In this document: in pieces, positions 7,986 through 63,057 of the stretch
How positions within the stretch are numbered: the stretch's first letter is position 1
Layout: each line of letters starts with the position of its first letter
NCBI GenBank assembly: GCA_964106645.2
Contig: OZ067038.1
Origin: Podarcis pityusensis
Taxonomy: Eukaryota
DNA: 64,000 nt
Direction: 5' to 3' (one strand)
Translations under genes and position numbers: made by a program
Notes under the pieces: model-generated
What the model was told of the DNA's origin: nothing
The model's input: only the letters and a program-made list of their open reading frames with translations
Database searches by the model: none

Positions 7986-8030
7986 AAAGAAAACTAAACT
8001 GTTCTCCAGGCTGAGGAAAAAGATGAGCAG
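7986..8030 (+). CDS. BIN1: BIN1 exon 11, muscle-specific phosphoinositide-binding (PI) exon, (R)KKTKLFSRLRKKMS
   Basis: Acceptor caacag, donor CAG|gtacca, 45 nt, phase 2-2. The polybasic peptide is homologous to human RKKSKLFSRLRRKKN. Confidence 0.93.
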
Positions 8031-10071: not shown

Positions 10072-10222
10072 TGACAGTACCCCAGCAAAAGCAAACAAAA
10101 CCCCCTCATCTCCGCCTGATGGGACTCCCATCACCAGCCCTGAGACCAAGGCTATCAACCATGAGCCAGAGCCATCCACTTTGGAAACACCTGGGGGAGG
10201 CATCCCTAAGTCTCCATCTCAG
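10072..10222 (+). CDS. BIN1: BIN1 exon 12, DSTPAKANKTPSSPPDGTPITSPETKAINHEPEPSTLETPGGGIPKSPSQ
   Basis: Acceptor (tc)n-tgcag, donor CAG|gtagtg, 151 nt, phase 2 to 0. NHEPEP and PKSPSQ are conserved with human. Confidence 0.95.
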
Positions 10223-10984: not shown

Positions 10985-11947
10985 TGGCATGTCCCATGGT
11001 TGCGTGTCGAGGTCCCCAATACACCCCAAAGGAAAACACAATTGACACTTAATTTTTGTTTAATTTTTTTGGCATAATTTTGGCCACAACTTTATTCAAA
11101 TACAGCAATGTGAGTGGTTGCTTAGGCATTGGTAGCACTAACTGCCCCCGGACGGGGACAGCTCTGACATTTGCACCCCCCGCAAAGTCAGGAAGGGTAA
11201 GTCACCTGGGGAGAGAGAGGGGACTGGGAACCATGCTTCACCTCTCCCCAGCATGCTCCCAGGGGCTTACGTGGCCCTAGCCCCTTGCCAGGGGGTTTCG
11301 GACAAAAGCATGGGGTTCCTTTAATGGTAAAACCCTTCAGCAGCAGCAGCATTTTGGAGGGGCAGGCACAGCCGAATCCATGCCCCTCCACCAGCAGCAG
11401 CATTTTGGGGGGCAGGCACAGCCGAATCCATACCCCTCCAGCAACCAATTCCAGACCAATGCCTAACCGCAAACCTTACAAGTTGTGACGATTTGCTACG
11501 TGGTAGGCGAAAACCAAGTGGCACACACTAATCAGCCAAATGGCAAAATTCCTATCGGGCCCCTGCCCCAAAGCAGACGACCCCATGACAGGCAATAGCA
11601 AGGTCAAGCAAACAGCCTAACATTAGGGAAGGGAGGGTGGGTGGGTGATCCGAAGCACGCAGCGAAAGAGGACGTCCATTGCTGCGTGCCTTGTATTTAA
11701 CAAATAGGGCTGTCAATCACTAAATGGCAACATCTAAATTTCCCCAGTAACAGCCCGCCCCTGCTTACGAGTTGGCCAAACCATCTGCCCAGAAACAGCA
11801 AGGTGTCTTGGAATCCCCAACTGCAACACGTGCTGTCCGTGATGGAGAACATGCTTTGCCCATGCAACTGCTGAGGATTATATGAATTGCTGAACAGCAA
11901 AGATGGCAGTTCTCTCCTAGCAAAAAAGTTACAGCAGGAAAATGTCA
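10985..11947 (-). mobile_element. Putative solo LTR (ERV/LTR-retrotransposon-like), copy 1
   Basis: GC/CpG-richer island sharing blocks with 32422-33275. AATAAA lies on the minus strand near its 3' end, with an internal ~51-nt tandem repeat at 11341-11441. Ends are approximate. Confidence 0.55.
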
Positions 11948-14900: not shown

Positions 14901-16460
14901 GTTGCCTCATGAAATCAGGCAGTGGTCTTTCCCAAGAGTGCTGGGCCCTGGGCATGCCAGTTCTTTTTATACTGAAAGCCAAAATGTAGGTTGTGTCTGT
15001 TGTTGTTAATAATGGATGTGTCCATTATTAAAAACCCACTCCAGGTTTTCTCCCAAGTCCCCAACCCCCAATTTCAGAAGCCTAATTTAGATTCCCTTCC
15101 ACCAGTTATATTTAGTGTTGCTATTGTTAAAGCAATTAGGAGTATTGCATTAGTCTTGCCATTCTGCTGCCATTTGCCTGGAGATCTTCTAGTTGATCTG
15201 AAATTACCTTCTGCATGCGCTGGAATTTCTGCAGCATTTGATTATCAGCCAGTTGATAAACATATGTATGAAATGGCAGCACCATCTTGTGCATTAAATG
15301 TAGGTCTGCAGTTAAAAGAGTTACAACCAGAGATAAGCCACTGTGTTACAAGAAGCACTAAAAAGCAAAGTGTGTGAATCACGTGACTCTGTTATTTTTG
15401 GCACTTTTGTGACATGTGAAACTAGCCAGATTGACTGTTGAAGACCTCAGTATGTAGCTTAGCTTGCTCATGCTAAATTGTCTTCAACACTTCAGAAAAC
15501 TAGATCTTTTCTGCTAGGCAGGGGCAGCATGACAAGAGTTTCGCACAATATTTTGACTGGGACATTTTTTGAATGGTCAAGTAGCACAACACAATTGAAA
15601 ACCAACCTACTGCTCTGATATTGCACCTAGAAATGAGACGTATTCCAGCTAATTTAGGTTTCTTAGTATGTTTGGTTGAAAGCCTGACACCAAGTAAACA
15701 TCTGAGAAAGGAGATGGAAGAGAAGAAAATCTTGACGTAACCAATCCAGATGGTACAACCCCCAAGTGTGGCATATGATGTTAAAGAAAAATAAAAGCCG
15801 CAATGTAACTTGTAGGAGAATATGGATTCCCAGACCAGCATAATTTTTATTCTTGTGACATTTGTGGTTATTTCACAGGAATGCTGTGACTCCAAAAAGA
15901 ATTGGACCCTGATTTCTTTTGGTTTGTATCTCAGCCATATTTAGGATGCAGAAATGTCTTTGTGACGCTGAACCAAGGTCACTTATAAAGAATGGGTTTA
16001 ATATATCGGGAAGCCTGTTTTTAGGAATCAGTAAAGCTGGCTTGGGTATCTTCTTTCTCTGTAGGCAGACAGGTACTGCTGCCACGAGTAATGCTGCTGT
16101 CTCTCCTGGCTCCTCAGCACTTTTTTTTTTGTAGTATGTAAACTCCCTCCTTGTCCTCCAGAAGGTTGCACAGACTCTAATTATGTATGCATGACCTATC
16201 TTATGCATATTAATTGTGTTACGCTTCTCCTCTGCAGAAGGGAGACCTGCCCACGACTGAAGTGTAACTAATGATGCGAACCCTTCTTTTGGAAGTGTGT
16301 GATTGTTTCTCCGTCCTCCCATGTGTGGACAACCCTCCTAGACCTCTTTCCCCTCTAGCTCTGTGTGTGTTTTGTATTTAGTTTTTGCTAACCTGGTTCC
16401 TGTCTCTGGTTTTTTGGGTGTTGCTGTCTGTGCCGTCGCCATGTGTTCGCTTGCATGCAG

Positions 16461-16589
16461 TTGCGGAAAGGTCCTCCCGTGCCGCCACCTCCAAAACTCA
16501 CTCCGTCCAAGGAGATGAAGCAGGAGAACATCATCAACCTGTTTGATGACAATTTTGTCCCAGAGATCAGTGTGACAACCCCCTCACAG
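16461..16589 (+). CDS. BIN1: BIN1 exon 13 (12A, CLAP), [43 protein letters not shown]
   Basis: Acceptor atgcag, donor CAG|gttagc, 129 nt, phase 0-0. It carries an RxxPxxP SH3 ligand and the FxDxF AP-2 motif (FDDNF). Confidence 0.97.
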
Positions 16590-17855
16590 GTTAGCTTCTC
16601 CTTCTTCCCTGCCCTCCCTTGTCCCTTCCTCTATCCGCTTCACCTTCACCTAATATTTTTTTTTGGTCCTTTCCTTATTAGAGGTGTCAGGCCATGAAAA
16701 CTGCTCAGTGCATGAATGTATGGGGGGGCCAATGTGATTTGAAATGGGCAAAAGGGCCAGTGAGTTTTCCCACCATATCTTATCGGCTCAGAAACTGTGT
16801 CTGAGGTAAATGGAGGCAGAATACGTGGAGAGGTTCCATCATTTTCCAATGTCTTTCATCAAGGCCATGGAGATCAAACCTATTTCTCCCCAGCTAAATA
16901 GGAGAGTGAGGCAGGAAGGCATTATTGTTTCAGGACATTGGGTACCCACCCACCCACCCACTCATGTGAAGTGGTCCCAGTTCTGCAGCCAAGTGGAGGA
17001 AATGTGGTTTGGATCAAGGGCATCCATCCCCATCCTTTAGAACAAAATTTCCTCCTGAGGCCCACATTCCTTTCTGGGGAGCTTTTTGGGGGGCCTGGGC
17101 AAAAGTGGGTGGAGAACAGAATCTAGGGTAAAGTTTAGAAGCTCTGCCCACATTATTTTTCTTAGAGTGAGGAGGAATTGGATGGGGTCTGGATGGGGCC
17201 CCCTTGATAATTGGGTACTAGCATGGTCACCCTGGCTCATACCTTACTTCCCCTCACATGGCTGGGGCATTAAGAATTGTGAGATTCTTAAATATATGAA
17301 TGTGGACTGTGCCTCACAGTGGTAACTTGAAATACCTGTGTGGTTTTAGCTGCCTCCAAGAAAAAAGTGCTTTTTTTCCTTATTGATAAGAATTTGAGAG
17401 ACAAATGGGTTTTGTGTTAGTGACTTTGGATGCTTTCATGCATCAACCCTAGACAGGTCATTCTTGGCCCTGGGCCTGCACTTAATATTTTTTAAAGTCA
17501 CTAGCATCTGCCACCTCTTCAGAGTCTCATGGCCTCTCAAGCTACTATTGTAAAGCTTGAGAAACTGATTGAAAACAAAATATTCTGTTGTAGCTAATTG
17601 CCTGAGGTAGTGACTAGGCAAATGGATGATATCCACCACATTGTCCCTTCCCAGGGATGATTTAATTCTAGCCCTTGTGAGGGAAGAAGGAAAAAACCAG
17701 CCTGATCAGTTTTCTGGCCACAATCTTACAACTTGCATCATCATCATCATCATCAACAACAACATTGTGATGTATAATTTTTTTCCATTATTCATAAAAA
17801 AATGACACCTCTAGCAGTTCTGTTTCCTGATTCCGCTCTTCCTTCCCTACCTCAG

Positions 17856-17909
17856 CGCGGTGGCCTGCGGCTTTTACCTCTTCCTCCTGTTCGACGGCCG
17901 AAACATTGC
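17856..17909 (+). CDS. Candidate additional BIN1 cassette exon, RGGLRLLPLPPVRRPKHC
   Basis: Branch-like cctgat, long pyrimidine tract and cag acceptor; donor TGC|gtgagg. It is 54 nt, phase 0-0 and open, with six CpGs in a CpG-poor intron. No transcript evidence is available. Confidence 0.6.
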
Positions 17910-20900
17910 GTGAGGGGCCTGGAGTTGGGAGAAAAGGCAAGTGTAGGCCACAAGTTACAAGGGTTGTGGGATTACCTCACAGTTGTGGGGATACAGGTCA
18001 TAGTTCTACAACAGATTAGGATTCCTTATTGAGGGTGGGGAGCAAAGGAAGATATTAAGCTGCCACTTAGCTAGCTTTAAACCTGATTTTTTTTAAAATA
18101 AATAAATAAATAAAAAGTAGGTCTTTGTCATTGCCAGAAACATTTATTGGAATGTTCTGAAACAAATTAACACAGAAATGAGCACCAAGTGTGGATTTCT
18201 GTCTGGCCATTTAGTAGCAACCATACATATATGGGCCAGTTCAAGTAGAACAGGGTGTGGAGCTCTTTGGAAGTGATGGGAGTTGGAGTCCAAAAACATC
18301 TGAAGGGCTTCTGGTTCCTCACCCCTGCAAGGGTGGAAACAAAAAGCAACAGATTGCAACATCTCTCTCCATCAGGACTTGATTTTAGAAGGTAAGGGGA
18401 ATGTTTATGTGTGGAAATCTCTTGAGAGATGACCAAAGGGAAGGTTCAGAAGTAAAGGAACTACAAGGGAAAAAAGAGGACCCTGTAGGGGAAAAAAAAG
18501 GCTTGTAGTACAAAATAAAAGAGGTTGTTGGGAGTAGTGTGTGGGAGTAGTGATTTGTTTACATTTGAGAGAGAGAAATAAATGAGCCTGTCTAGGAGAT
18601 CTTAGACTAAGGGACTTTTGGAAGAATGCCTGTGGAAAAACACCTGTAGAAAAATGTTATGTGAAAATGCAAAATCAATGATGAGCACAAGGTAGAATTA
18701 GTCTCACCCTGAGGTACTGCGAGATTATTGTTTCATGTGGCAGATTCTGAACAGCATTAGAGGCTATCCAAATTGTTCTTAATTTAGTATAATTTTAATG
18801 AGGTGGGAGAATGGAATTTGAAGCAGAAAATTCTTAAATGCGCTGCTAGCCATGCAAAAAGGATTTCACCACCTGTTAGTGGCACTTTTCTTTCTTTCTC
18901 AAAATCCTGATATGTAGGCGGTGTGGTTTTAAAGAGGTTAATTGTTAGTAACATGCAATTGGCCGAATTTATAGCTTCAGTGAAACGTACCAACAAGCAT
19001 TGCCTTTTCTTTTTGATTTTTCTTCCTAAAGATGAGAGCTCAGAGATAACAGTGGATACCATGGGGAGCTAGGAAGGAGAGCAGAGGCTTTGCATTAATG
19101 GGGAAGCAGAGACTAAAAGTGAGAAGAGTTGCACTTTGTAGAGTCTTTTGGTCAAGGGAACCAAGGAGCTGCCTTCAGTGTAGGAATTCTGTCTGTATAT
19201 GCCCCGTTCATTTTGTTATCTGAGAAAGCCGTGGGCCACTGAGCAACCTCCCATCCTTGTCCACACCTATCTTTTCCTTGTAGCATGCCTCAACAACTCT
19301 TACACCATGTTTTATATCATACGTTTCTGTGTAAAAACACTTGCCTAAACAGAGCATTCAGCTTGGGACGCATCCAGCATGGAGGACACCTGGCATGTAC
19401 AGGTTTCAAATGGATGGGTTTGAGTCCTAGAACAGAAACCATAGGGAAAAACCTATGATCAATGTATTTCATGTACCATATGTGATTTTTTTCTGTGTGT
19501 GTTGGGCTAATTATTTGGGAGGAGAGGGAGGGCAAGCTAACAAGAAAGAGGAACCCTCGGCACATGGTGCAGGTAACTCTGGGGTGACAGGTAAGCTTCT
19601 AGCATGGCTATACCCTTTTGACCTGAATTGGTTTTTAGTCAGGCACAGAAAATGAATACCTAGAAGGTCTTGCTTCAGTGGTAACCTACATAAGAAATAC
19701 TTAGGTGATCTGCTGTGAGTATTGTGTAACCTTTTAAAATCTAAATTTATTGGAGTTGAGATTATGAGACAGAAAACCGCCTTCATTGAAAGCTTGTTCT
19801 GATATTGGTAGGAACTAGTGAATGACACAAAAAAGTTAAAGTTGAAATATAAATTGCTGCTGCTTGGAAACTGTGTGGAAAAGAATGTGCTAGAAGTTTC
19901 TCTCTTGAAAGTATGTGGATATATCAAACTGATAAAGGGTTTTGCTTTGAAACAGCAGCAATATAGTTTTCCTCAGTTGGTGCATTTACGTTAGTTTTCA
20001 CCAGATATCCTAATAATTCAGAAATGTTTACTGCTGTGCCTTGGTTTGGTTTAGAAAGGTTACATTGCATTACTTTGCCTTAGGACCAGAAGAACTATCA
20101 GAGAAGTTGCTGAAATATTTGGACAGAGCTCCTTTCAGAAACAGCAAGCTGGGAAAAAAGGGGTGCCTTGTAAATCATCTTTTTAGGAATATGGACATTA
20201 GTCAAAATTTGAATGCTGCCACTGATGTTCTAATTTGCAACCCCAATAGAATTGCTTCTAGTTAATAAGATAACCTCCTGACTAAAAAGGGACCTTTTGG
20301 CTAGATATATAACTTGAAATGTATATAATAGAGAACTGGAATAATTTATTAATATTGGAAATAACGTCCGAATATGGAAAGCATTAGAATATGGGCAGGG
20401 GAAACAGATTGCAAAAGCTAAGATCTTAAACAAGGAATCTACTGTGTTTCTGACTATGATGATACAGATTTGCTGCTGTGAGGATCATAGAGAGGCTTCC
20501 ACTGAAAATGCTGTGCACATCATACATAGTTTCATTCTTTTAAGAAGTGCCTAAAGCAGTGGCCTAGCTGTGCTGAAAGTTGCATGTGGAAGTATCTTGG
20601 GTAGGATTTAGGGACCCTGTTTGGAAAGATCACAAGTGATAGTGACCTCAAGAAGACCCCTGATAAATATGATGGATGGTAACATGAAAACTGCTCAGGC
20701 TCTGTAGAATACTGATGCTTTGTTTTCACGGCTGCGTTTCTGCAAAAGTGTTGAGCGTACTGTGGCCACTGGGCACATGTGAGCAGTCATTGCTTGTACC
20801 ATAGAGTTGTATGCATCTTTTTTTGCACCTTCAGCTCCTGGGTAACACCTTCTGCATACCAGCCTGCATCCTATACCTGACTAACACGCAATACTGCTTT

Positions 20901-20919
20901 TCTTCCTTAATGCTGCAAG

Positions 20920-21030
20920 TTTGATGCCCCTGGGCCCTTCCAGGAGGGAGCCAGCCTGTTGGATTTTGATTTTGATCCCATTAAACCTGATAACAGCCCT
21001 GTAGGGAAGTCGCCTACGCCTGCTGCCCAG
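20920..21030 (+). CDS. BIN1: BIN1 exon 14 (CLAP), [37 protein letters not shown]
   Basis: Branch point ctgactaac, acceptor gcaag, donor CAG|gttggt, 111 nt, phase 0-0. Contains the clathrin box LLDFD. Confidence 0.93.
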
Positions 21031-22350
21031 GTTGGTTTACTGCTGCCATTCCTTCATGAAATGTTAGACAATATAGACCTCATCAGTCATGATGGGGATG
21101 GGTGTGTATGTATGTATTCATAGCAACAGAAGTACATGTGGAGACTTACAAAATGTATCTACAGAGTCTCACATGACTCTTCCTGATGATTTGCATTAAT
21201 AACAGTAGCTTATGCTTTTTTTAGGTGTTTCATGTACACTAACTTGATAATTCTTAGAATAATCTTGTAGAGCAGACCAGTGTTGTTTATACTACACTGC
21301 TGATCAGGGAGCTGAGACTTGGAGAGATTGACTTGCCTAAGACCATCTAGGAGTCCATGACTGAGTTGAGATTTGAACCACAGATTTCCTGCAATCAGTT
21401 ATGAGTCAACCTTGGTAGGCTTCTCGTTGCCTTGTTGCCATTATTATTATTATTTCAACTGGGAAAGTAATCTGTGGATTCTGTACACATAATACATAAT
21501 ATCCAGTAGGTAACTGCATTCTGCAGCTGAGTTTCTCCTTCAGGTACCTAGCGTATCAGAAGTCTTCTCCACAGTAACTTGCCACAGAGCTTTCAGTGTG
21601 GCTTCTCCTCTTCTACTTTCTAAAAAAACAACTGAATACATTTTTTGTTTTGATGAATTTTTCCAGCTGGATGTAAAAAGGTCTCCTTTCATATTGTTTT
21701 TAAACCAATCTGCACCTGGATTTTTGTAGTGTTCTAAAAACTAATTTTTAGCTGTTTTACGGTATATTTGTAAATTGCCTCGAGATGCATGCAAAAGGCA
21801 ATTAATTAATTTAATCAATGGCTCTCCTACAGCGCATTATCTGCTGAGCCTGTTTAGCTTCACAGGAATCCACCCTCATCTGGCAGATGCAGAAATTGTG
21901 ACGTAGTGAGATGAAAATTGGCCATCTCGTGCAGTGTAAATTAGTAGCAGCTAGATTAAAGAACATGAGGGATGAAATGGATAATTCAAAATATCACACA
22001 ATAAGCTTGCATTAATGTCAATGAATGGCATATTATTAAATGTGGTATCCAGTGCTGGACCTGAGCGGGAGGCAGTTTATGGTGTGTTACTCTCCTCTTC
22101 GAATCCCTTCCAGAGCAGGGATTTTTGTGTGTTTCAGCATGTGTGTATGTTACTGATAGTGTAGGAGGCTCCTACAGGGAGAGCGAGGGTCATTGAAAAT
22201 TGCCTCCCTCTCTCTTCCACTGATGGATATCTTTGTTGGAGGAATCCTCTGGGTGGTACAAGGAGACTTTGTATGTTTGCACTTTCTGTGTTGGCTGAAT
22301 TAATGATGTCTCAATGTGTTTTTATTCCTGTTGCTCTTTGCTATGCTTAG

Positions 22351-22374
22351 TCTTTGCCTTGGGATTTATGGGAG
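22351..22374 (+). CDS. BIN1: BIN1 exon 15 microexon, SLPWDLWE (clathrin W-box)
   Basis: Acceptor gcttag, donor GAG|gtaaga, 24 nt. Contains the PWDLW motif. Confidence 0.95.
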
Positions 22375-24106
22375 GTAAGATTTCTATTAATATAGCTTTC
22401 AGTGCAATAAATTCTACCATGTGGTGCTTGGCATGTGTGAGTACTTCCTTCTGTCACTATCATGCAAAGATGATTATTCTTGTCTTGACCTTCCGTTCTC
22501 ATCCTCTTCAGTGCTATGAACTAAAGTGGTGTGGTACAGTTGCAACCTCTTCTGCCCTTTGTCTGTCACGCTGAGAAGAAGTCTTCATCCCCTGTGCTTT
22601 GATATTGCCTATTATTAATGGCATTGACTGAAGCACAAACCTTCTTGCTGCAATAATTGTAGACCTTGCTGCTACTTTTTACCTTGTCAAAAAACAAACA
22701 AACCCCTGCATGCCATTTCCTACCTCTCGATTGTGTAGTATGTATACTTCTCAACTACCACCAAACAATTCCTTATTCTATACATATATTTAGTATAATG
22801 CTGTGCTTGCTGATTTGCTGCCGTGGTTCACTAATAACAGAGATTGGAGATCTCTCCAGTACTGCTGGAGAAACGAACCTTTCCTCCTTTCTTATTATGC
22901 TGCCAGATATTACGCTGTAATAAATCAGTTTAAAAAGCCAATGGCTTGTAGTTTCCAGACTTTCTTCATAACATTTTGGGCATGTTGAGATATATAGCTT
23001 TGCTTGAGTCCACCTGCTAGCAAGTAACCTTTATTCTTTGCTTTTGTGCATTTCCTGTTGTCTTTATTAATTCTATATCTTCACAGGAGGATACTTCTTA
23101 TGTTCTAAGTTAAAATTTAAGTTTACTCATTTGGCTTACGTTATCTGCCATCAGATGTCTTTTGAGGTGTGATTGGCCTTTAAACAGAATTGGCCTACAC
23201 TGGTTTCCCATTGTAAATTCATCAAATTGTCTCAAGAAGTTGACTCCCTTGTCTTTCCTGACCCAAGAACCTTCACTATTACTTCTTCCTAAGCATTTTC
23301 TCTGCTGTTTTCCCTCCTCCCTTTCCTCCTCATATAAAGGTTTAGTGAATAGATTGTGTCCTCAGGATAGGTAGCCATTAGATTTAGATCAACCACCCCA
23401 GAAAAATGGTGCGCTGGGGAAACAAGCACCATATTTCTTCAAACAAATGTGTATGAATCCCCCCGCCTTCCATTATTTTCCTTGCTATTTTTCCTCATTG
23501 AAAATATATATTATCACACAGCAGGGTTTAACTGCACCAAAACATATAGCAGTCCAGTGAGTAAAGAATTGCTAGCTCAACCACCAAATTATCTGATTTA
23601 AATCTAAACATCATTGAGTACTGCATTACCAAAACTTCAGTGTAGGGAAGTGCAAGTTGACTCATTTCATTCTGTATAAAAGCAACACAGAGAAGCTAGA
23701 TAGCCCCCCAAATAAAGAAGTATGACAAGTCTCACCTTAGTTAAAATTTCTCAACAGAAGTTCTGGCTACTGATTCAGTAGCTTGCCACCCTAGTTAAAA
23801 AGCTTACTAAGCCTGACAGAAGGCATTGTTGTTCAAAATGTATTGTCAATAAAGCCAACTATTAAAGGCAGGAAGTGAGAAAAAGAATTGTAAGCTACTT
23901 GTGTGGGGTACTGTGGCCTGGCACCTTTCTGTGCAGTTGAGAGGAGCCCGATCAGATGAGAGATTGCAGTGGACTACCCATGTAGCTGTGCCTCAGCAAC
24001 TGTGGTTGTTGAATGGAAAGCCAGTATGCTGTGGCCTCTCTTACACAGTCATAGTGTATGTACAACTACTCCAGAAAAATGGTGCAATGTGGAAACAAGC
24101 ACCATA

Positions 24107-24485
24107 CAGTGGTGCCCCGCAAGACGAATGCCTCGCAAGACGGAAAACCCGCTAGACGAAAGGGTTTTCCGTTTTGGAGGTGCTTCGCAAAACAAATTTC
24201 CTATGTGCTTGCTTCGCAAGACGAAAATGTCTTGCGAGTTCCTGCGGGGTTTTTTTCCTCCCCCCCCTTTTTCCCAAGCCGCTAAACCGCTTATCAGCTG
24301 ATCGTTAAGCCGCTTAACAGCTGATCGCTAAGGCGCTTATCAGCTGATCCGCTAAGCCCGCTAAGCCGCTAATACTGTAGCGCTAATCCGCTAAACCGCT
24401 AATGGGCTTGCTTCGCAAGACGAAAAAACCCGCAAGATGAAGAGACTCGCGGAACGGATTCTTTTCGTCTTGCGAGGCACCACTG
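24107..24485. mobile_element. Tigger/mariner-like MITE, relatively young
   Basis: TIRs cagtggtgccccgcaagacg / cgtcttgcgaggcaccactg with TA TSD. CpGs are retained and there are internal ccgctaa repeats. An empty-site paralog lies at 23390-23451. Confidence 0.9.
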
Positions 24486-25070
24486 TATTTCTTCAAACAA
24501 ATGTGATCTATATTTTCCCAGCTTTAGTTGTGATATAGGATGTTAAATACCTACCCTAAAGTAGATAGAGACTATGAACCACCAATGTTTTGCTTCTCTC
24601 TGAACTGCAACCTTTAACCTAAGATATCTTCTGCTGCTATTTGCTCTGCTTGCTTTTGTAATATCCTTATGTCATGCTGACGGCGTGCTTCTATAGTTAT
24701 TGCTGAAACCATTATTGGCTGAACAATTCATTAATTTCCGATTCAGAATATAGATGTTTTTAAGTGGAACAGTTCTCCATGAAAGGTCATTTAATCCATG
24801 CTGATATTATCACTGTATGTAGTTTGCTTCTTGTCAGGAACTACCTTTAAGTCTATTTAGCAGTGTTTCGTTGCTAGTTAAGCATTTACCTAAAAGCAAA
24901 TACATTTAGTGGTCGTTCCTTCTTTAAAACCCTGCTCCCACCCTCTGCCAGCAATGGCTATTCTTTAATATATATTTTTAAGGACATAATCACCTCCCCC
25001 CCAGGTTCCATCCAAAATTATGGCACATTTGACTCTTACCTGTTCAACAGTTCTATTTACCCTGGGATTA

Positions 25071-25294
25071 CCGTATTTTTTGCTCTCTAAGACGCACCCG
25101 ACCACAAGACGCACCTAGTTTTTGGAGGAGGAAAACAAGGGAAAAAAAATTCTGTGCAGTGAAAGCAGCAATCCCTCTTGCTGTTCTTGCTTCTGTGATA
25201 GCTGCGCAGCCTGCATTCACTCCGTACGACGCACACACATTTCCCCTTACTTTTTAGGAGGGAAAAAGTGAGTCTTATAGAGCAAAAAATACGG
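25071..25294. mobile_element. Tc1/mariner-type MITE inserted in duplication copy A only
   Basis: 16-bp perfect TIR ccgtattttttgctct / agagcaaaaaatacgg, TA TSD at 25069-70 and 25295-96. Copy B has the empty site gggatta-tttcattg. Confidence 0.92.
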
Positions 25295-25426
25295 TATTTC
25301 ATTGTCTACTCTGTCTTACTTCTCACTGCACTCTTCTCATTTTTGTAACTTCATGTAACCATGCCTACTGCTATCTCCTCCCATCTCTGTTTCTCTCTCC
25401 TACCTCCTTCAAATTCTGTCCATCAG

Positions 25427-25546
25427 CCGGAAAAGACTCCATCTAGCAGCGTTCAATCTATGGATCAGTTTCCGGCCGATAATCCTAGCAATAGTGCGTT
25501 CGAGGTGGACTGGCCTGACCAGCCCACTGAGACTAAGATCAGCCAA
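25427..25546 (+). CDS. BIN1: BIN1 exon 16, copy a, PEKTPSSSVQSMDQFPADNPSNSAFEVDWPDQPTETKISQ
   Basis: Acceptor catcag, donor CAA|gtaagt, 120 nt, phase 0-0. Its position and AFEVDWP resemble human exon 16 (TFAVSWP). Whether this copy is spliced is unknown. Confidence 0.75.
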
Positions 25547-26050
25547 GTAAGTGAAAGTATTTGAAGTGATCATACATTTGAAATTGTCTTGTTCTGGCTG
25601 GTGTGCTCTAGCACAAGCCTGATTCAGTTGTTATTCTTTGGAATGCATTATGCTGGGGCAAATTTATGACCTTTTGCACCCAGCACTCTTCAAAAGGAAT
25701 TAGAATTTACCCATTCCCTAAGCACAATAGTAAAGCACATCTCCTTAACCGTTTATCTGAACTGGGGGGAAACTGGTGTGGTCTAGTGAGTAAAAGTAAT
25801 AGCTTGGCACGGAAATTCTAGAATTATTTTATCATTTGTTTTAGGGATTGGTGAGCAGCCGTGTACCCATAATAGAGATGCATTGCATCCCTTGAAGCTG
25901 AATGTTCAGAAAACATTGGAGGAGGGTTCTCTGAGTGTTCAACTTAATATTTGAAGGGTTCGATGCCAGCCCACCTCTGCCTGTTTCCCTCTCTCCCAAG
26001 GAAAAGGACTAACTGTGGGGAAGTCAGAATGGGTATCAGGTGGTGGGAGA

Positions 26051-27070
26051 GTGATGTAGAGAAACACTCTTTTATTTTCTTTTGGAATATTTACTGCTAA
26101 ACTGCCTAATAAAAATGCTTCCAGTTTCTTTACAAATGTATGTTTTAGCATTTTTTTTAGTTCCTCGTAAATCATGTCCCAATTTTTTTTAATTTGGGGA
26201 CAAGTCTGCCACTTGTGGAAAAAGGTTCCTATGGTTTGTTTACACCTCCAACACTTGTTACTATTGTTTTTATTAATTTTAGCTAATTTGGATGGGGTCA
26301 GGTACCATCTGTAGGTCATTTTCATAAACTTTTCTTTAATCAGATAGCACACTATAAATTTTAAATCTTTTTCCCCCATAATTCTTCCCATTTTTCCATT
26401 TCAATTGGGTAGCCGAAATGAGCTCACTTCACCATCACTTCCTTTACTTTTTCATCTTTCAAATAATAATAATCTATATGTTTTTGATAATGTCTTCCTA
26501 TTATTTAATATTAATTCTTTTTCTAGGTCTTACATCTTTATATCAAATCCATTTGTTTTTTAATGTAATTTAAAGATTTCATTTAGGTGGTAATATTGTA
26601 GCCAGTTCATCCCTGTCTGTTTAAGTTCTTCATACCCTTTAAGTTTTAATTGGTTATTTTCTTCTTCTAATATTTCTTTATAGGTGAGCCAATTAATTTC
26701 CATGTTTTTCTTTTTCACTGCTATTGCCTCTACTGGAGACAACCATCAAGGTTTTTTTTTGGGTTCCAATAGTTTATTTCTCCCCCATACTGTGAAAAGT
26801 GATCTCCTTCTTATATGGTTAAGGAATCCTCTGTGCATTTTAACTTTGTCATATCCGAGATAACCATGCCAGTCGAACCTATTGTCCCGGCCTTCAATGT
26901 CTAATATATTGGCATTTTTTAGTAGTATCCATTCTTTGAGCCATACTAAACATGCAGCCTCGTAATATAATTTAAAGCCTGGCAGCACGAACCCTCCTCT
27001 GTCTTTTACTTCCATTAACAGTTTAAACTTAATCCTTGGCTTTTTGCCCTGCCATATAAATCTAGCCAGG
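26051..27070 (-). mobile_element. L1-clade LINE ORF2 C-terminal fragment (frameshifted, no 3' tail)
   Basis: ORFs 26746-27135 (RFIWQGKKPRIK...GGFVLPGFKLYYEA), 26560-26742 and 25939-26391 (CWRC...FH..QTCP zinc knuckle) form an L1 post-RT region. Confidence 0.88.
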
Positions 27071-27183
27071 TCTAGGGGCAACTTTGCCTTCTGTTGCACC
27101 CCTTTCTCTTTCGTCTTGCTGCGCGTCTGTCTCAAGATGGCAGGAGCACAAACTACAACCTGACACTGAGCGTGCTAGTCTGG

Positions 27184-29166
27184 AAGTCTTTCTAGCAGTG
27201 TTTTGTTGCTAGTTAAGCATTTGCCTTCGTTAAATATTCTCAAAGCCATTGAGAGAGGGTATTCTGTAGATCCAGCTCTATGTTTTGTACAACAGCAAAA
27301 CAAGCTACCCTGGATGGGGTTGCGTAACCCACCCACAGCAAAAGACAATTCAATGAGACCTCGATGAGCATTGTGTTGAGGGTGTGTATAGGGAATGAAT
27401 ATTCAAATGCACACCTGCACCAGTTGTTCACACAGAAGTTTACTCTACAAGTTGATTTCCCATGCTATTTCCTCCTGAAGAGAGTCAGGGGTTGTGGATT
27501 GTGATACATATTGTGACATCAAAGACCCATATACTGGTGGGATGGGAAAGCCATTTTAGAATCAAACAGCCTGATATAAATGTAACTGATGCAGATATGG
27601 GCTGCCATAACTCAGAGAATCTGCTTTGCATGCAGAAGGTCTCAGTTTTCAATTCCCAGCATCTCCAGCTAGAGCAGGAAGAGACTGCTGTCTGAAACCC
27701 AGTCAGGGTAGACAATGGTGAGCTAGATGGCTTTCTATATTCTGATATTTTCCCCAGAAGGTGTTTGATCCAAAGACACAAAGAAGAGATAGGGGTTTTA
27801 ATCTTTATAATACGACTTTTGCAACAAAATAAGCTATACAGTTGAGAGTCCAAATAAAAGGACATGAATATTTTATGACATAAAATAAATTACCCCAAAT
27901 GTTATAAAATAAGATAAACCAAAATATCAGATAAGCTTGTTAAGTCCATACTCAAATTCACCTCACAGTTTCAGGCTTTAATTTAGCTCACTATAGATCA
28001 TATATCTATATCTATATACAGTATCTACATATCTGTCTGTATATATTTATATATACTGGTAGATATATATAGATATAGATATACATATTCTGTGACTGGA
28101 AAACCACAGCTTAAAAACAAATACATTTAGTGGTCTTTCCTTCTTTAAACCCTTGCTCCCACCCTCTGCCAGCAATGGTTATTCCTTTTATATATATTTT
28201 TAAAGGACATAATCACTTCCTTCTGTGTTATGGAATTAAATCTACTGAGAGGCTAAATTCAGTGACAAAATTCAAAATGTGGCCCCATTCCCATCTTCTG
28301 CAGCAGAGAAGGTGTCACTGAGACAGCTCAGCACTGCCTTTATGGATTTGGCAGTGCATAGAAGCAGTGAGGGAGAAAGCAAGAGGTACTTAATGATGTA
28401 GGAGGGATTTTTAGAAATATCCAGGGATGCCTTGACAAGGCTAAACCAGGACAGCATCCTCTGGAGAACGGTGCTGCCTGATGCTTGACACTGGCAGTCT
28501 TCCAGGGCAGTTCTACTTGCACTGCCTGTATCCATGGAAGCTCCATCTGCACCCTAACAATCCACTTCATCTCAAGGTGAACTACCCTGGTCAATAAATG
28601 GAGGCACTTTTGTCAGACCATTGGCTGCAGGGGTAATGTTGACCCCACTTTCCCCCCAGGATCCATCCAAAATTATGGCGCATTTGACTCTTACCTGTTC
28701 AGCAGTTCTATTTACCCTGGGATTATTTCATTGTCTACTCTGTCTTACTTCTCACTGCACTCTTCTCATTTTTGTATCTTCATGTAACCATGCCTACGAC
28801 TATCTCCTCCCATCTCTGTTTCTCTCTCCTCCCTCCTTCAAATTCCACCCATCAGCCGGAAAAGACTCCATCTAGCAGCGGTCAATCTATGGATCAGTTT
28901 CCGGCCGATAATCCTAGCAATAGTGCGTTCGAGGTGGACTGGCCTGACCAGCCCACTGAGACTAAGATCAGCCAAGTAAGTGAAAGTATTTGAAGTGATC
29001 ATACATTTGAAATTGTCTTGTTCTGGCTGGTGTGCTCTAGCACAAGCCTGACTCAGTTGTTATTCTTTGGAATGCATTAGGCTGGGGCAAATTTATGACC
29101 TCTTGCACCTAGCACTCTTCCAAAGGAATTAGAATTTACCCATTCCCTAGGCACGATAGTAAAGCA
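27184..29166 (+). repeat. Tandem segmental duplication, copy B (contains exon 16b)
   Basis: Homologous to 24849-25737. It carries ~885-nt and ~430-nt segments absent from copy A and lacks the MITE. Confidence 0.93.
28856..28975 (+). CDS. BIN1: BIN1 exon 16, copy b, PEKTPSSSGQSMDQFPADNPSNSAFEVDWPDQPTETKISQ
   Basis: Acceptor catcag, donor CAA|gtaagt, 120 nt, phase 0-0. It differs from copy a by one base (gtt/ggt, V/G). Confidence 0.8.
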
Positions 29167-29779
29167 GGGTATAAATAATAAATTATTATTATTATTATTA
29201 TTAATGAGAAGGGGCAGGCAGGCAGAGACTACAACCTCCCCTCCATCCAAACAAACAAAGGCTTACCCACCTACCACTCTGATAATTGTCTTTTCTTTGT
29301 GTTTTCCATGTAAGGAAGTTTTTTTAATATTTGATGCTTTGATGTGTTTTAATAGTCTGTTGGGAGCTGCCTAGTCAGATGGGCAGCATATAAATAATAG
29401 AATTATTATTAAGTTCATCAATTCCTAATTTGTTCAAGAGAGATTTTGCTGTTAGAAGTGTCAAATAAAGCAAGGGTTGCTATGTTCTGCTGCATGTGGG
29501 ATGGGAGTGAGGGGGAGAATTTTACCTAGGCATTGTTTATCCCGCATTGCTGAGTTTCCCTGTTGTCAGAATGCATACTGGTTCCTTGTGTGTGGCTTTG
29601 TTTCAGTGGAGTGTGGCCCACAATTATTTATACCAAGTGTGGAATATGTGTGTATTCTTTGGTATGATTCTCCTGAAATCATTGGAATAAGCTGGTGTGC
29701 TTTTAGTGAGATTTCGTTTTCTGCACACTGACAATAATGTTTTTGCAAAATTGGAGCATTTATCACTTAGCAAGTTTCA

Positions 29780-30215
29780 TTCCTACCCTACAAGAAAAAA
29801 GACTGCATTTTCTGGGGCTTGGTAGTCTAGAAAAAAGAAAATTAATGGGGAACATTTTGCAAGGTGTGGAGAAGCAGGATAGAGAGTACTGTGTGTCTCT
29901 CTCCCTCATCATACTTGGGATCACTTGACAATGTTGATGGGCAGAAGCCTTGAGACAGGTGCAGAATTATTAATACAAATTATTATTATTAAATACTTAT
30001 TCATACAATACACCATTAATTTGAGAAACCAATCAAGACTAGTCCTTGATTGTTATATGAAACCTCCAGGTTTAGAGATAGGATATCTCTGAATATTAGC
30101 TACTGGGGAGCAGCACTGGGAGGGGGCTAGGACCTGAATATACCGGTAGGTTTCCCATATTGGCTAATGGGAAACAGGATACCTGACACGATGGACTACT
30201 GGTCAGATCCAGTAA
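29780..30215 (+). mobile_element. CR1 LINE 3' fragment (old)
   Basis: Decayed translation EKRLHFLGLGSLEKRKLMG resembles CR1 ORF2 YEERLxxLGLFSLEKRRLRG. Confidence 0.6.
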
Positions 30216-30891
30216 GGAAGCTAAACAGAAATAGTTGCAGTTTCAATGTAAAATAATAGTGATTCCTAAAAGGGGTTTTTGAATTCCCTTTTAATAGACT
30301 CTCTCAGTCTTGTGCATCAGAGCATATCTATCCTGCATCATGTTGCCTTTATGTAGCATGTGGCTTTGTAAGAGCACTTACACAGTGCCTGTATCTTCTT
30401 TGCTCCTATATAGTTCAATATATAGCCAGTTCAGTTAGCTTTGTGCCACTTCCATTGTAGTGTTTCAACAAGAAGACTCTATAATGACTTCTCTGAAGAG
30501 GCCTATTAGGAATAGTGCCATCTTGGACAATGGCTTGTCAAGTTGTTTAGTGCAGAGATCCGTACTGGAAACCTTTTGAGAGCAACACTTGGATGTGATT
30601 TTACTTATCCTATATTGGCAATATGTAAGTTTCAATCAATGGTGGCAAGTGGCATATGCTCTTAAAGCCCTTGTAGACTAAAAGGAAATGTGACGTGTGT
30701 TCATTCATACACTGGGAGGTAGAATGGGCAGCTTTAATGATGTGCATAATATTCCTTTCTACATTACCTACCCACCTGTGCCACTGCCGTTTCCCTCATA
30801 CTCCACTATGTAGATAAATAATATACATTTGGGTCAGCTTGAAAATGACAAGCCCAGAAGAAAGCCTTATCTATTTCATTAATGGGTAGTG

Positions 30892-30892
<1 letters not shown>

Positions 30893-30935
<43 letters not shown>
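30893..30935. repeat. (ATT)n microsatellite
   Basis: Read directly; explains the poly-Ile in ORF 30882..31157. Confidence 0.95.
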
Positions 30936-30936
<1 letters not shown>

Positions 30937-31440
30937 TGCTAAAAAAGAATAATCATTATTGTTTATACCCCCATCGATTTGCATATTTTATTCTTCTGAA
31001 GAAAAGAAATGTTGGTAGCATCAACAAAGATTTCCCTGATCTTATCAGTTTCCCCAGAGATGTGGGGAAGGAAGCAGCCATGGTGTGGCTGCCCAAAGTC
31101 ATGGGAAAAAAGGAGGAAGGAAAAAATGTACTTCAGTTGCAAAGCTTCTGTTCATAGATGAAAGGGGGGGGGGGGAAGGCAGGAAGACAGAAATATGATC
31201 TGTATATCCACCATCCTTCAAGGCAATCGTTTTTTGAAACTTCATGTAAATGCATTGAAAACTGCACTTCTATCTTTAACAAATGAATGCAAATGGTAGG
31301 AGAGAAGCCAAAAATCACTTTAAATAGCATTTTGGAACTGTTCACCTCAGTAGGTGAACCTTTCAGCATGTCAGGTCCTCTGTTTCATAGGCTCCATTAT
31401 CAATCTTTTTTTGGTTTTAATCTCTGATAAATGTTTCTTA

Positions 31441-31752
31441 GCTTGCATTCACACGGCAGTTTATTTTGTTTTCCTGACATTTCCCTAACATAAATTTCTG
31501 CCTTATATTCCAGCTTTCACACAACGATAAAGACACTTCCAGAAACAGAGCGGAATGTAGCTTGAGTTTAGTGCTCATTTCTGCGTTATTTGCAAATGGA
31601 TTTTTTTTCTTCTAGAAATGAGTGCTAAACTTGTGTTATAGTCTGCTTTATTTCTGGAAACGGTTTTTATGTCACCTGAAAGTTAAAATATATGGCAGAA
31701 ATCAACTAGGAAACACAGGGAAAATATAATAAACTGCTGTGTGAATGCAGCC
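31441..31752. mobile_element. PIF/Harbinger-like palindromic MITE
   Basis: TIRs gcttgcattcacac..cagtttatt / aataaactg..gtgtgaatgcagcc, with TTA on both sides (31438-40 and 31753-55). Confidence 0.75.
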
Positions 31753-32421
31753 TTACTGTAAGATTGAGATGCATGCAATCCTATTGATTAACTGCTGAGA
31801 GGTAGGAAATTGGATGGGTTCTTACTAGTCTCTTCTTCAGTGGCCAGGTGGTGGCAGTCTTTGATAGCATTGATTCTCACTATATGCTGCTAACTCTGCA
31901 CAGCCTTATGTGGTATAACTGATCGGCAGGGTGTATGCCATCTTCATATCTGATCTGATGGTCTATTATTTTAACTGCTGCTGACTTAGAACGGTGAACT
32001 TGGTGACCAGTTGACCCTGGTCCAAAAGGCAGCTTCTGTTGTTCTGTTGTCATAAGGGTCTGCTGTTATTAGGAAGCGCACTGCCAGATTTCATCAGACT
32101 TTCCTTTCCAAGTCCTGCAAGCAGGAATTTTCTCAGCCACATTCAAACGTTTTACTCAAGGTGAAGTGCGTCAGTTTTTGAAGCTATGCAACTGTATGAA
32201 GAGATACAGCAGTTTTTCGCAGCCATAAAAGAAATGGTAGAAACTATGCAATCATGCAGAAGATAGAACCTTTTGGGCACACTGTTGGCTTATTTGGCAA
32301 AAGACAGGGTCAGCACTGGAAAACTTGAGAACATGAGGTTGTTTTCAAATGTGAGGTTTTAAATAGCTCTTGCTTCAAGCTGATTTGTAATGCAAATGCG
32401 AAACCTTTATTAGCTGGATCA

Positions 32422-33275
32422 TTTTCATAACCCAAGCTGCGCTTCGAAACCCCCAAACATACCCCCCCCCAAATGAAGATACACAGGATTTTAGTTTAAG
32501 TTAGTGGCAAAATTTAGGCCACAACTTTATTAAATACAGAATGTGAGTGGTATTGGCTTAGGCATTGGATTCACCCGACTATATCAGACTCCCATCTGCT
32601 TCGCAGGGAATCTGATAAAAGGGTGAAACACCGCCAGAGGGAGCCCTGCCAGTGAGGACCGACTTGAGCTCCCCCGGTGTCTCTGTGGGGTCCTGGTATG
32701 GCCCTAGCTCCTACCACGGGGTTTCGAACAAGACCCAGGCCAACCACTGATTCCTTTAATGGGATACCCTTAACCTTGGAGGGGCAGGTGATGGCCACCC
32801 CCCTCCCCACATATCACTGATCCAATGCCTAACTGCCAGACTTTACAAAGTTGTGACAATTGCTACGTGGTAGGCAAAAACCAAATGGCCATGCCAAATG
32901 GAAAAATTCCTACCAGGCCCCTGTTGCAAAACAGGTGACCAACGAAGTCCACAGCAAGGCCAAGTGCACCAAGATAAAGGGCGGGCGGGTGGGCGTTCCT
33001 CTGCGTGAAGGCAATGAGGACCAGCAAACAACACGCAGGGCATAAATAAAGTTTTACAGCCACCCCCTAAGCCACGCCATTGGCTTTAGGGTCCAGGAAA
33101 CATGCAAAACGACCAACCAGCGTGGAGCAGGGCATAGCCCTGCCAACCCCAGCAGATGGGAGATGCTTGGAGGCCCGATCGCAATGCGTACCCTCCATGA
33201 AGAGGATCCGATTTAACGCAAATAGTGCAGGAAACCCCTCAAAGGTGCGCCTCCTTTAAACTTGACTCATGAAAA
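32422..33275 (-). mobile_element. Putative solo LTR, copy 2 (same family as 10985-11947)
   Basis: Shares the blocks ggccacaactttatt..aatacag..gcttaggcattgg and ccaatgcctaac..tgctacgtggtaggc. Short terminal inverted repeat ttttcat/atgaaaa. Confidence 0.55.
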
Positions 33276-33616
33276 ATATCTGAGATGGGTGAGACTGACC
33301 CACATAGTGCAACCACAAAGACTTAATAAGCAGCCAACTCAATGAGCTCCAGGCTACATTCCAGCCCAGGGTCATTTACTCTTCCTCAAAGTGGTGCAGA
33401 TTGGATCTGTGCCAACACATGGACTTGGGATACCCAACTGGTGCCGATACCTGACTGTTTTAAGAGTGTGGGTGCTGCAGTCCAGCTAAGGACTCAGACT
33501 CCACTCAGCACTGAGCTGCAGATGCTCATAATTCTGGCAAGGCCTAAAGATGTGGCAGGTCATGCTCTCCTGGGCATGCTGGGGTTCCAGGAGTTTAACT
33601 GGCTTTTGTGTTGCAG

Positions 33617-33718
33617 CCCACAGAAGCCGCTCCTGCTGGTGCTGAGGCAGCTGGCAAAGAAGCAGCAGCAGCTGGAGCTGAAGCAGCTAAAACCGAAACT
33701 GACTCAGGATCTGCCTCA
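33617..33718 (+). CDS. BIN1: BIN1 exon 17 (MYC-binding region, alternative), PTEAAPAGAEAAGKEAAAAGAEAAKTETDSGSAS
   Basis: Acceptor ttgcag, donor TCA|gtaaga, 102 nt, phase 0-0. Ala/Glu-rich like human exon 17. Confidence 0.88.
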
Positions 33719-34727: not shown

Positions 34728-34838
34728 AGCTCTCTGCCTGCTGTAGTTGTGGAGACCTTCCCAGCCACAGTCAATGGAACAGTTGAAAGTGGAGCCGCTT
34801 CTGAAAGGGCTGACATGCCACCAGGTTTCCTGTTTAAG
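34728..34838 (+). CDS. BIN1: BIN1 exon 18, [37 protein letters not shown]
   Basis: Acceptor gcttag, donor AAG|gtgagt, 111 nt. The N-terminal half is nearly identical to human. Confidence 0.97.
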
Positions 34839-35550: not shown

Positions 35551-35652
35551 GCACAAGCCATGCATGACTATGCAGCCACTGACAGTGATGAGCTACAACT
35601 GAAGGCTGGAGATGTTGTCCTGGTGATTCCATTTGACAACCCAGAGGAGCAG
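35551..35652 (+). CDS. BIN1: BIN1 exon 19 (SH3), [34 protein letters not shown]
   Basis: Acceptor ttgcag, donor CAG|gtaagg, 102 nt. Encodes the SH3 RT-loop; visible in ORF 35449. Confidence 0.97.
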
Positions 35653-37193: not shown

Positions 37194-37364
<171 letters not shown>

Positions 37365-57245: not shown

Positions 57246-57597
57246 TGGTGGGGATGCAGGTGGCGCTGTGGTCTAAAACCATAGAGCCTAGGGCTTTCCA
57301 ATCAGAAGGTCGGAGGTTTGGGGTGAGCTCCCGTTGCTCGGTCCCAGTTCCTGCCCACCTAGCAGTTCGAAAGCATGTCAAAGTGCAAGTAGATAAATAG
57401 GTACCGCTCAGGCGGGTAGGTAAACGGCATTTCTGTGTGCTGCTGTGGTTCGCCAGAAGTGGCTTAGTCATGCTGGCCACATAACCCGGAAGCTGTCTGC
57501 AGACAAACGCCAGCTCCCTTGGCCTATAGAGCGAGATGAGCGCACAACCCCAGAGTCGTCTGCGACTGGACCTAACGGTCAGGGCTACCTTAACCTT
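57246..57597 (+). mobile_element. Sauria SINE, full length
   Basis: tRNA-like head ggtggcgctgtggt, the characteristic body and an (acctt)n tail. 13-bp TSD tattacttcactt at 57233-45 and 57598-610. Confidence 0.92.
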
Positions 57598-58729
57598 TAT
57601 TACTTCACTTATTTCAGAACATGTGAAGCCAACCCTGCTGCGTTAGGGGCTCCCCTACTTGTTCAGCTGACTTGCTCCATTATCTTGCTCCAAAGTCTTG
57701 CTTGCTCCATTGGAGTACCACATCTCCCACAGCCTTAAATGTCCTGGTGTGCCGTCTGGAGCAATCCACAATCTTTGGTCAAAGTGTATCTTTTCAGTCC
57801 CCTTTCAGCCAGGTATCCCTTTATTTACTTTGGGACACACAGCTAGGCCCATCCTCTTCCTCCCTCCTACAATGGACAGGTTCTTGCCATAAAATCTTGG
57901 TCTCTCTGAGCAGTCCCAACCATCTTCAGCTGTGGCATGAGAAACAAAACAACCTCTGCTTAGGCTTCGCTCCCTTGCAAAACAGTAAGGAGATTGTCTG
58001 CATTCATTTCTTTTACTAGTCAAACAGCCCTCAGAGCTGCTATAAAATCCACATTGGTTCAAGTGAACCAGGAAAATGGCAAAATTGGCTATTTTTGTCC
58101 TGTTAAAAATACAGCTGTCTTTGAGGTGAAGCATCTTAAGGTGGCACTGTTGCCTCATGGTTAGAATAGTTCGCTCTTGCTTGTTTTGTATTTATTACAA
58201 ATGCTCAGTGCCAGAGATTTTGCCCTGAGTCGGGAGGAAGCCAGGCTCACACCACAGCTTGAGAGTTTGCTTTGAGCATTGGGTTAACAATGTAATGGAT
58301 CCGTGGGACACTGTGGGTGAAGACAGATGGAGGATGAAAACAGAGCTCAAAGCAAGTTCTCAAGCTGCGGTGTGGGCCCTGACTTCCTTCTGACTTCACA
58401 ACTGAAATGACAGGCATAGGGTGCATTGCCAAAAGAAAGAGAGGACACAATTTTGCATATACCAATGTATAGATATAGACACAAATTTAAATATATTTCC
58501 TCTAATTGAAATACAAATATAATACAGCTCTCCAAAGCAGGAAACACATCAGATAACTTGTGTATCTCCTCAGTCTGTTGACCGGTGCTGTTAGCTGTTG
58601 ACAGACAACTTTAGGCCTCCTGCTCGCCCTCCTTTCTTAGAGTTTCTTATCTTTAAATCAGACTTGGATTGGACAGCCCCCAAACAGAGGACACCTTCAG
58701 ATATTGTACAAATTGATAGTGCAACTGCA

Positions 58730-62742: not shown

Positions 62743-63057
62743 CTAGGACTTGCCGATCAGAAGGTTGGCGGTTCGAATCCCCGCGATGAGGTGAGCTCCC
62801 ATTGCTCGGTCCCTGCTTCTGCCAACCTAGCAGTTCAAAAGCACGTCAAAGTGCAAGTAGATGAATAGGTACCACTCCAGTGGGAAGGTAAACGGCATTT
62901 CCGTGCGCTGCTCTGGTTCGCCAGAAGCGGATTAGTCATGCTGGCCACATGACCCGGAAGCTGTACGCCGGCTCCCTCGGCTAATAAAGTGAGATGAGCA
63001 CCGCAACCTCAGAGTGGGTCACGGCTGGACCTAATGGTCAGGGGTCCCTTTACCTTT
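62743..63057 (+). mobile_element. Sauria SINE, 5'-truncated
   Basis: Homologous to 57246-57597 and ends ggggtccctttaccttt. Confidence 0.9.

Follow-up and report, generated by a model that had tools for sequence, protein, structure and literature searches.

We analysed a 64,000-nucleotide stretch of contig OZ067038.1 (assembly GCA_964106645.2) from the lizard Podarcis pityusensis, hereafter the window, which contains exons 8 to 20 of BIN1 on the plus strand. BIN1 splicing decides whether the SH3 domain is available for dynamin or tau, and is relevant to how T-tubules form, to centronuclear myopathy and to Alzheimer risk. Within the alternatively spliced part of the gene we found two additions to the familiar exon series: a cassette exon between exons 13 and 14, here called exon X, that is shared across squamates and predicted to encode a ligand for BIN1's own SH3 domain, and a tandem copy of exon 16 (16a and 16b) in lacertids.

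Exon layout of lizard BIN1

The gene in the window is lacertid (Podarcis-type) BIN1. A full BIN1 model from Lacerta (P0092) contains a Pfam BAR domain (E 1.4e-43) and an SH3 domain, and its closest PDB structures are those of BIN1; the ESM Atlas gave no usable match. Exons 18–20 of the window are matched letter for letter by 52–64 BIN1 records, and the translation of 16a joined to 16b is matched exactly by 10 protein records from Podarcis raffonei and P. lilfordi. Following the domain-to-exon map in PMC7389646, an N-terminal N-BAR domain, the PI exon 11, CLAP exons 13–16, MBD exons 17–18 and a C-terminal SH3 domain occur in the order characteristic of BIN1 (Table 1). Across 20 squamates, 41 of the 43 columns of exon 13 are invariant. 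The clathrin box of exon 14 (20956-20970) reads LLDFD in 4/4 lacertid records and LLDLD in 11/11 other squamate records checked.

Table 1. BIN1 exons and duplicated or repeated sequence in the window
Feature	Position	Strand	Description	Support
Exon 11	7986..8030	+	PI (muscle) exon, 45 nt	matches lacertid BIN1 models
Exon 12	10072..10222	+	ends phase 0	
Exon 13	16461..16589	+	129 nt; CLAP proline-rich motif (class I RxxPxxP) and FxDxF	donor joined to X and to 17 in RNA contigs
Exon X	17856..17936	+	squamate cassette, 81 nt, 27 aa, GC donor	protein records; acceptor used in RNA contig
Exon 14	20920..21030	+	111 nt; clathrin box (LLDFD in lacertids)	14-to-15 joint in run X2
Exon 15	22351..22374	+	W-box microexon (PWDLW), 24 nt	
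Duplicated unit, copy a	24849..25737	+	~670 bp plus the 224-bp element	
224-bp element	25071-25294		terminal inverted repeats, TA flanks; copy a only	
Exon 16a	25427..25546	+	120 nt, FEVDW	15-to-16 joint in run X2 (16a or 16b)
LINE fragment	26056..27073	-	broken 3' fragment of an L1-type long interspersed nuclear element (ORF2 C-terminus), in the spacer between copies	zf-RVT E 0.009, below Pfam's cut-off
Duplicated unit, copy b	27184..29166	+	two private insertions (27227-28111, 28221-28645)	
Exon 16b	28856..28975	+	120 nt, FEVDW; one base (V to G, residue 9) differs from 16a	
Exon 17	33617..33718	+	102 nt; first half of Myc-binding region; no listed motif	joints 13-to-17 and 17-to-18
Exon 18	34728..34838	+		
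Exon 19	35551..35652	+	SH3 first half; likely partner of X	
Exon 20, coding part	37257..37364	+	SH3 second half and stop	

Exons 13, 14, 15, 16a, 16b and 17 are each bounded by AG and GT, are multiples of three in length and phase 0-0, and are free of stops, as they had been read in the initial annotation of this stretch. The short motifs that it had placed in most modules are present (RxxPxxP, FxDxF, PxxPxR, LLDFD, PWDLW, and FEVDW twice), with none in exon 17. It also correctly counted seven in-frame modules where human has five, and both extra modules are lineage-restricted. Human exons 13–17 are likewise all phase 0, so the symmetry alone is not new. By contrast, the start that had been given for the array, 16238, marks only an AG 223 nt 5' of exon 13, and the reading of a 24-nt microexon starting there was present in 0/158 proteins. 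The intron end upstream of exon 13 (16180-16460) contains two TGCATG sequences (RBFOX-type) and one ACTAAT (QKI-type or branch-like) in addition to this spare AG (16236-16237).

We collected splice joints from contigs of four presumed-RNA sequencing runs of related organisms, accepting only joints on exact exon borders. Of 41 joints, 15 were listed; these do not include 16a-to-16b, 16-to-17 or any joint from the X donor, and a joint missing from them is no evidence of absence. The joint from exon 13 to X (16589-to-17856, GT..AG) was observed in one of the four runs, X8, and the joint from exon 13 to exon 17, which skips X, in three of the four, X8 included. Contig depth in run X8 was 34 for 13-to-X and 30 for 13-to-17, values that we do not take as inclusion levels. 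Run X2 contained the 14-to-15 and 15-to-16 joints; the short side of the latter is 24 letters, so 16a and 16b are not distinguishable. For X, acceptor use and skipping are both seen in RNA contigs, and its donor is known only from protein records.

Exon X and its predicted SH3 ligand

Exon X was initially annotated as a 54-nt candidate (17856-17909). The candidate proved to be a real in-frame exon, but one that ends at 17936 with a GC donor and is 81 nt long. Among 77 records holding X behind exon 13, 75 have 27 residues before the next exon and none has 18; the two exceptions are models extending beyond residue 27. No record joins a 54-nt form of X to exon 14 or 17. The 27 codons end in AAG/GCAAGT, and the GT at 17910 sits on a codon that varies between species (V, A, P, T, E). 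Immediately downstream, the intron (17937-17975) is alignable between lacertid and gecko when translated in frame, hinting at a conserved splicing element next to the GC donor.

A query of the candidate plus its downstream frame returned 20 proteins from 48 candidates, all squamate BIN1 except for one unspliced open reading frame, and a query over the 13/X border returned 46 proteins from 56 candidates, all squamate. With cluster members included, X is present in protein records of 33 squamate species, covering geckos, a cordylid, an amphisbaenian, lacertids, anguimorphs, iguanians, a boa and colubroid snakes. X was not found outside squamates in either of these word-seeded searches, which covered annotated proteins, and a HMMER scan of 1.84 billion cluster representatives gave two matches, the query and a gecko record. 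Judged by this distribution, a squamate origin of X is likely, and X is an old, fixed squamate feature, gained at or before the squamate root. X is single copy in the genome, which gives no support to a transposon origin, although an old origin of that kind would be hidden.

Of the 27 positions of X, 18 are invariant across 28 species compared, PLPPVRR among them. A 12-residue core has a mean pairwise identity of 99% in 20 species, versus 83% for exons 17 and 18. X contains overlapping class I (RLLPLPP) and class II (PLPPVR) SH3-ligand motifs, followed by a basic tail and a conserved cysteine that is invariant in 28/28 species compared and replaced by tyrosine in Heteronotia. We assigned motif classes by the ELM definitions as used in PMC11245310. 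The class II core P..P.[RK] is matched by PLPPVR at residue 401 of model P0121 and is invariant in 28/28 species. Whereas exon 13 has class I matches only, X has one of each class, and its class II match is the sole one outside the BAR domain. According to PMC11245310, the BIN1 SH3 domain clearly favours class 2 ligands, and the class II peptide of p140Cap, which ends in PPPPPPRRS with two terminal arginines, is reported to bind it at 7.7 µM (PMC12510028). The exon-13 peptide is reported to bind the SH3 domain at 71 µM and to close BIN1 in cis (PMC6778065). The class II motif of X, together with the class 2 preference of the domain, suggests that X is probably a second, stronger latch.

The company that X keeps in protein records is restricted. 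We scored 151 full-length models, found via exon 16 or X only; the set is therefore biased, and models can permute exons. These models contain 24 distinct combinations of exons 13–17, a soft number, of 96 possible at the protein level, and 14 combinations occur among the 19 Lacerta agilis models. The couplings are firm within this set: X is accompanied by exon 13 in 74/74 full-length models and in 19/19 spliced records of the X-only search, and exon 15 by exon 14 in 69/70 models. The modules are thus not included independently of one another, contrary to their initial description as freely combinable. The commonest form with X, 53 of the 74, lacks exons 14–16 and has the structure 13+X+17. X occurs both with and without the PI exon. 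Three X-bearing snake records (UniRef T1DAD9, A0A098LYK5 and A0A0F7Z1G6), which we take to be venom-gland transcriptome records, contain neither exon 7 nor the PI exon, consistent with use outside neural tissue.

Several models have departures of other kinds. Two Zootoca models (P0100, P0103) and one from Ahaetulla (P0112) terminate by exon 14 running into the intron, and other Zootoca models lack exons 14–15; the read-through may reflect an assembly break or a truncated isoform. In Pogona, Elgaria, Rhineura and Hemicordylus we observed small extensions from alternative donors or acceptors: 4 aa following exon 17, 3 aa following exon 19 and 9 aa preceding the PI exon.

The tandem copy of exon 16

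We searched annotated proteins with exon 16 and obtained 78 proteins from 79 candidates, with no colubroid among them. Exon 16 is doubled in 40/48 lacertid models that have it (cluster members included), from three Podarcis species, Lacerta agilis and Zootoca vivipara, and in 0/66 models from ten non-lacertid squamates. Among the species sampled, therefore, the duplicate is seen only in wall lizards and close kin. Duplication of the ~670-bp unit predates the Podarcis/Lacerta/Zootoca split, and both copies have kept their frame and splice sites. In Rhineura, the nearest non-lacertid sampled, 10/10 models lack exons 14–16, so the duplication is not datable against it. All nine Crotalus tigris models lack exon 16 (P0151, P0153-P0155, P0173-P0176, P0183), and the five of them with exon 15 join it directly to exon 17, suggesting that exon 16 has likely been lost in a rattlesnake and possibly in colubroid snakes.

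A genome search with the duplicated unit matched exactly the two sites in the window. The two exons are 3,309 nt apart, with a spacer of 1,446 bp between the unit copies, which are 96.6% identical over 443 bp. The exons themselves agree at 119/120 bases and 39/40 residues here, and are identical in Lacerta and Zootoca. Differences between copies are fewer in the exon (1/120) than in the introns (30/553; Fisher p 0.028; proximal introns 14/323, p 0.08), which fits selection or exon-centred conversion. Across the five species 16a has no residue change and 16b has three in total, too few to test. A target-site duplication by the L1-type element is not supported as the cause of the exon-16 duplication: unique sequence of 318 and 110 bases lies between the L1 piece and the copies, and we found no target-site duplication of at least 6. 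The L1-type fragment has 46 genome matches at 67-87% identity. Two high-copy elements with inverted ends (24105-24490; 25071-25294) had very deep repeat cover in the runs examined, and dispersed repeats of 77-85% identity pair 11052-11608 with 32488-32964 and 57288-57598 with 62743-63057 inside the window.

We regard it as extremely unlikely that assembly created the second exon 16 by placing two haplotypes in tandem. The 96.6% identity of the copies is indeed near the 2.4-4.1% divergence of the window from contigs of related organisms; however, a false duplication would be expected in one assembly only, and this one is found in independent annotations of five species. In addition, another organism's contig spans 25708-27562, bridging the unique spacer, and each copy has private insertions.

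The copies resemble a mutually exclusive pair in being adjacent, homologous and of equal phase, but most transcripts are not modelled with a single copy: the 40 of 48 models cited above, all of them gene models, hold both, and the 3,309-nt intron poses no steric block. FEVDW does not match the FxDxF, DPF/W, clathrin box or W-box consensus. Among the ten non-lacertid species its second residue is E in three and V or A in seven (FVVDW, FAVDW), so that only FxV[D]WP is kept, and FEVDW thus fails as an adaptor consensus site. We found no literature source that names a ligand for it. The duplicate brings neither a new motif nor any known clathrin/AP-2 site, whereas the initial proposal was that the array could tune clathrin/AP-2 avidity. 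Given its phase 0-0 borders and low constraint, a second copy of exon 16 may simply have been tolerated, tandem inclusion adding 40 residues, while exon-centred gene conversion or mild selection would keep 16a and 16b alike. Exon 16 seems to be dispensable, and having it twice is probably nearly neutral.

Interpretation and comparison with known systems

We favour, with a probability of roughly 0.55, a reading in which an ordinary CLAP/MBD region has acquired two unrelated additions, the squamate X latch and the lacertid tandem copy of exon 16, the latter probably only lengthening the linker. X would fold back onto the C-terminal SH3 domain and compete with dynamin-type partners, so that its inclusion would damp SH3 recruitment in non-neural isoforms. 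Judged by its motifs, X probably binds the SH3 domain of BIN1 itself and holds it in check as a second latch in cis, chiefly in the 13+X+17 isoform, and a role in SH3 autoinhibition, as initially proposed for the array, is plausible for X. Several points weigh against this reading. The absence of X outside squamates comes from searches of annotated proteins and not from tuatara, turtle or bird genome DNA. Binding of X to the SH3 domain is predicted from sequence, and a motif as short as PxxPxR could be a trans ligand for other SH3 proteins. For the X donor and the 16a-to-16b joint the evidence consists of gene models in databases, in which exons may be permuted. Finally, the closer similarity of 16a and 16b in the exon than in the introns could be a sign that two copies are selected for and not nearly neutral.

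A stronger version of the latch seems to us possible but tentative. X would have arisen at the squamate root as a purpose-built latch, tighter than exon 13, that turns dynamin recruitment off; 13+X+17 would be a tubulating, scission-poor isoform of squamate heart, muscle or gland, and lacertids would have lengthened the SH3 tether by doubling exon 16. If this were true, 13+X+17 would be a natural counterpart of SH3-loss myopathy alleles. About equally tentative is the idea that X docks other SH3 proteins in trans, through RLLPLPP (class I) or PLPPVRR (class II), giving non-neural BIN1 a new partner rather than closing it. The two motif classes overlap and are both conserved, and although class I is not the preference of the BIN1 SH3 domain (PMC11245310), the arginine and the first P-L-P-P are invariant. 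Yet an SH3 domain with class II preference lies in cis ~60-90 residues from X in 13+X+17, cis closure is already reported for exon 13 (PMC6778065), and the cis and trans roles are compatible. We consider it very unlikely that X acts instead as a membrane anchor, in which a basic patch beside a conserved, possibly S-acylated cysteine would have an effect akin to that of the PI exon. In favour are the RR, further K/R residues and a cysteine invariant in the 28 species, with tyrosine in place of the cysteine in Heteronotia, as well as the presence of X in models that have the PI exon and in models that lack it; however, the best-conserved part of X is the proline core.

The broader proposal of the initial annotation was that up to seven freely combinable modules could tune clathrin/AP-2 avidity and may still be increasing in number. 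Read as a still-expanding splicing code, in which selection keeps the second FEVDW as a further adaptor site, this strikes us as improbable. The common phase of all seven exons, the number of combinations (overall and in Lacerta agilis) and the retention of both exon-16 copies in five species are in its favour. By contrast, the X-13 and 15-14 couplings, the variability of FEVDW at E, the near or complete identity of the exon-16 copies and the missing exon 16 in Crotalus tigris argue against it. X, moreover, dates from the squamate root and is fixed, and is no sign of ongoing growth, and two gains do not make an expanding code. We read one squamate-root gain, one lacertid duplication and one likely rattlesnake loss as turnover.

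Both X and the exon-16 duplicate are already in RefSeq/GenBank predicted isoforms. Our literature searches, of partial coverage and directed at main texts rather than supplementary exon tables, found no description of either; the two papers to which they led, PMC7561204 and PMC7878758, merely touch on BIN1 or deal with it as a whole gene. The surprise is limited, since cassette exons and exon duplications confined to one lineage are frequent and public gene models already contain both of the features described here. Of the two, conserved X as a likely SH3 latch appears the more worthwhile, the duplicate being a modest lacertid variant. X offers a natural near-consensus SH3-ligand exon in all squamate groups sampled, and with it a test of how linker exons tune BIN1, and its peptide is a possible inhibitor of the BIN1 SH3 domain. 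The exon-16 copy number, probably 0, 1 and 2 within squamates, suggests little specific function for this CLAP exon.

The lizard region shares with human and mouse BIN1, as described in PMC7389646 and PMC11297290, the exon order, motifs and variable inclusion of CLAP exons 13–16 and exon 17, as well as the proline-rich stretch and the phospho-switch threonine of exon 13; in mouse cortex, inclusion of exons 14–16 is reported as highly variable (PMC11297290). It differs in the 81-nt GC-donor exon between 13 and 14, in the doubled exon 16 and in the lacertid LLDFD clathrin box. The cardiac isoform BIN1+13+17 (cBIN1; PMC7956774) likewise joins exon 13 to 17 and skips 14–16, a joint found in three of our four runs, whereas squamates have 13+X+17 as well, a counterpart with an insert. 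As in CLAP-SH3 and PI-SH3 autoinhibition (PMC6778065, PMC12510028), an alternatively spliced linker exon would serve as a ligand for the protein's own SH3 domain; X is set apart from those ligands by a canonical class II motif followed by a basic tail, and its binding is predicted. For the second addition, the parallel is tandem exon duplication, which Kondrashov and Koonin (2001) reportedly described as a source of alternative splicing. Exons 16a and 16b are alike in being neighbouring, homologous, symmetric exons from a short intragenic duplication, and differ from mutually exclusive pairs in being modelled together, in their spacing of 3,309 nt and in their very slight divergence.

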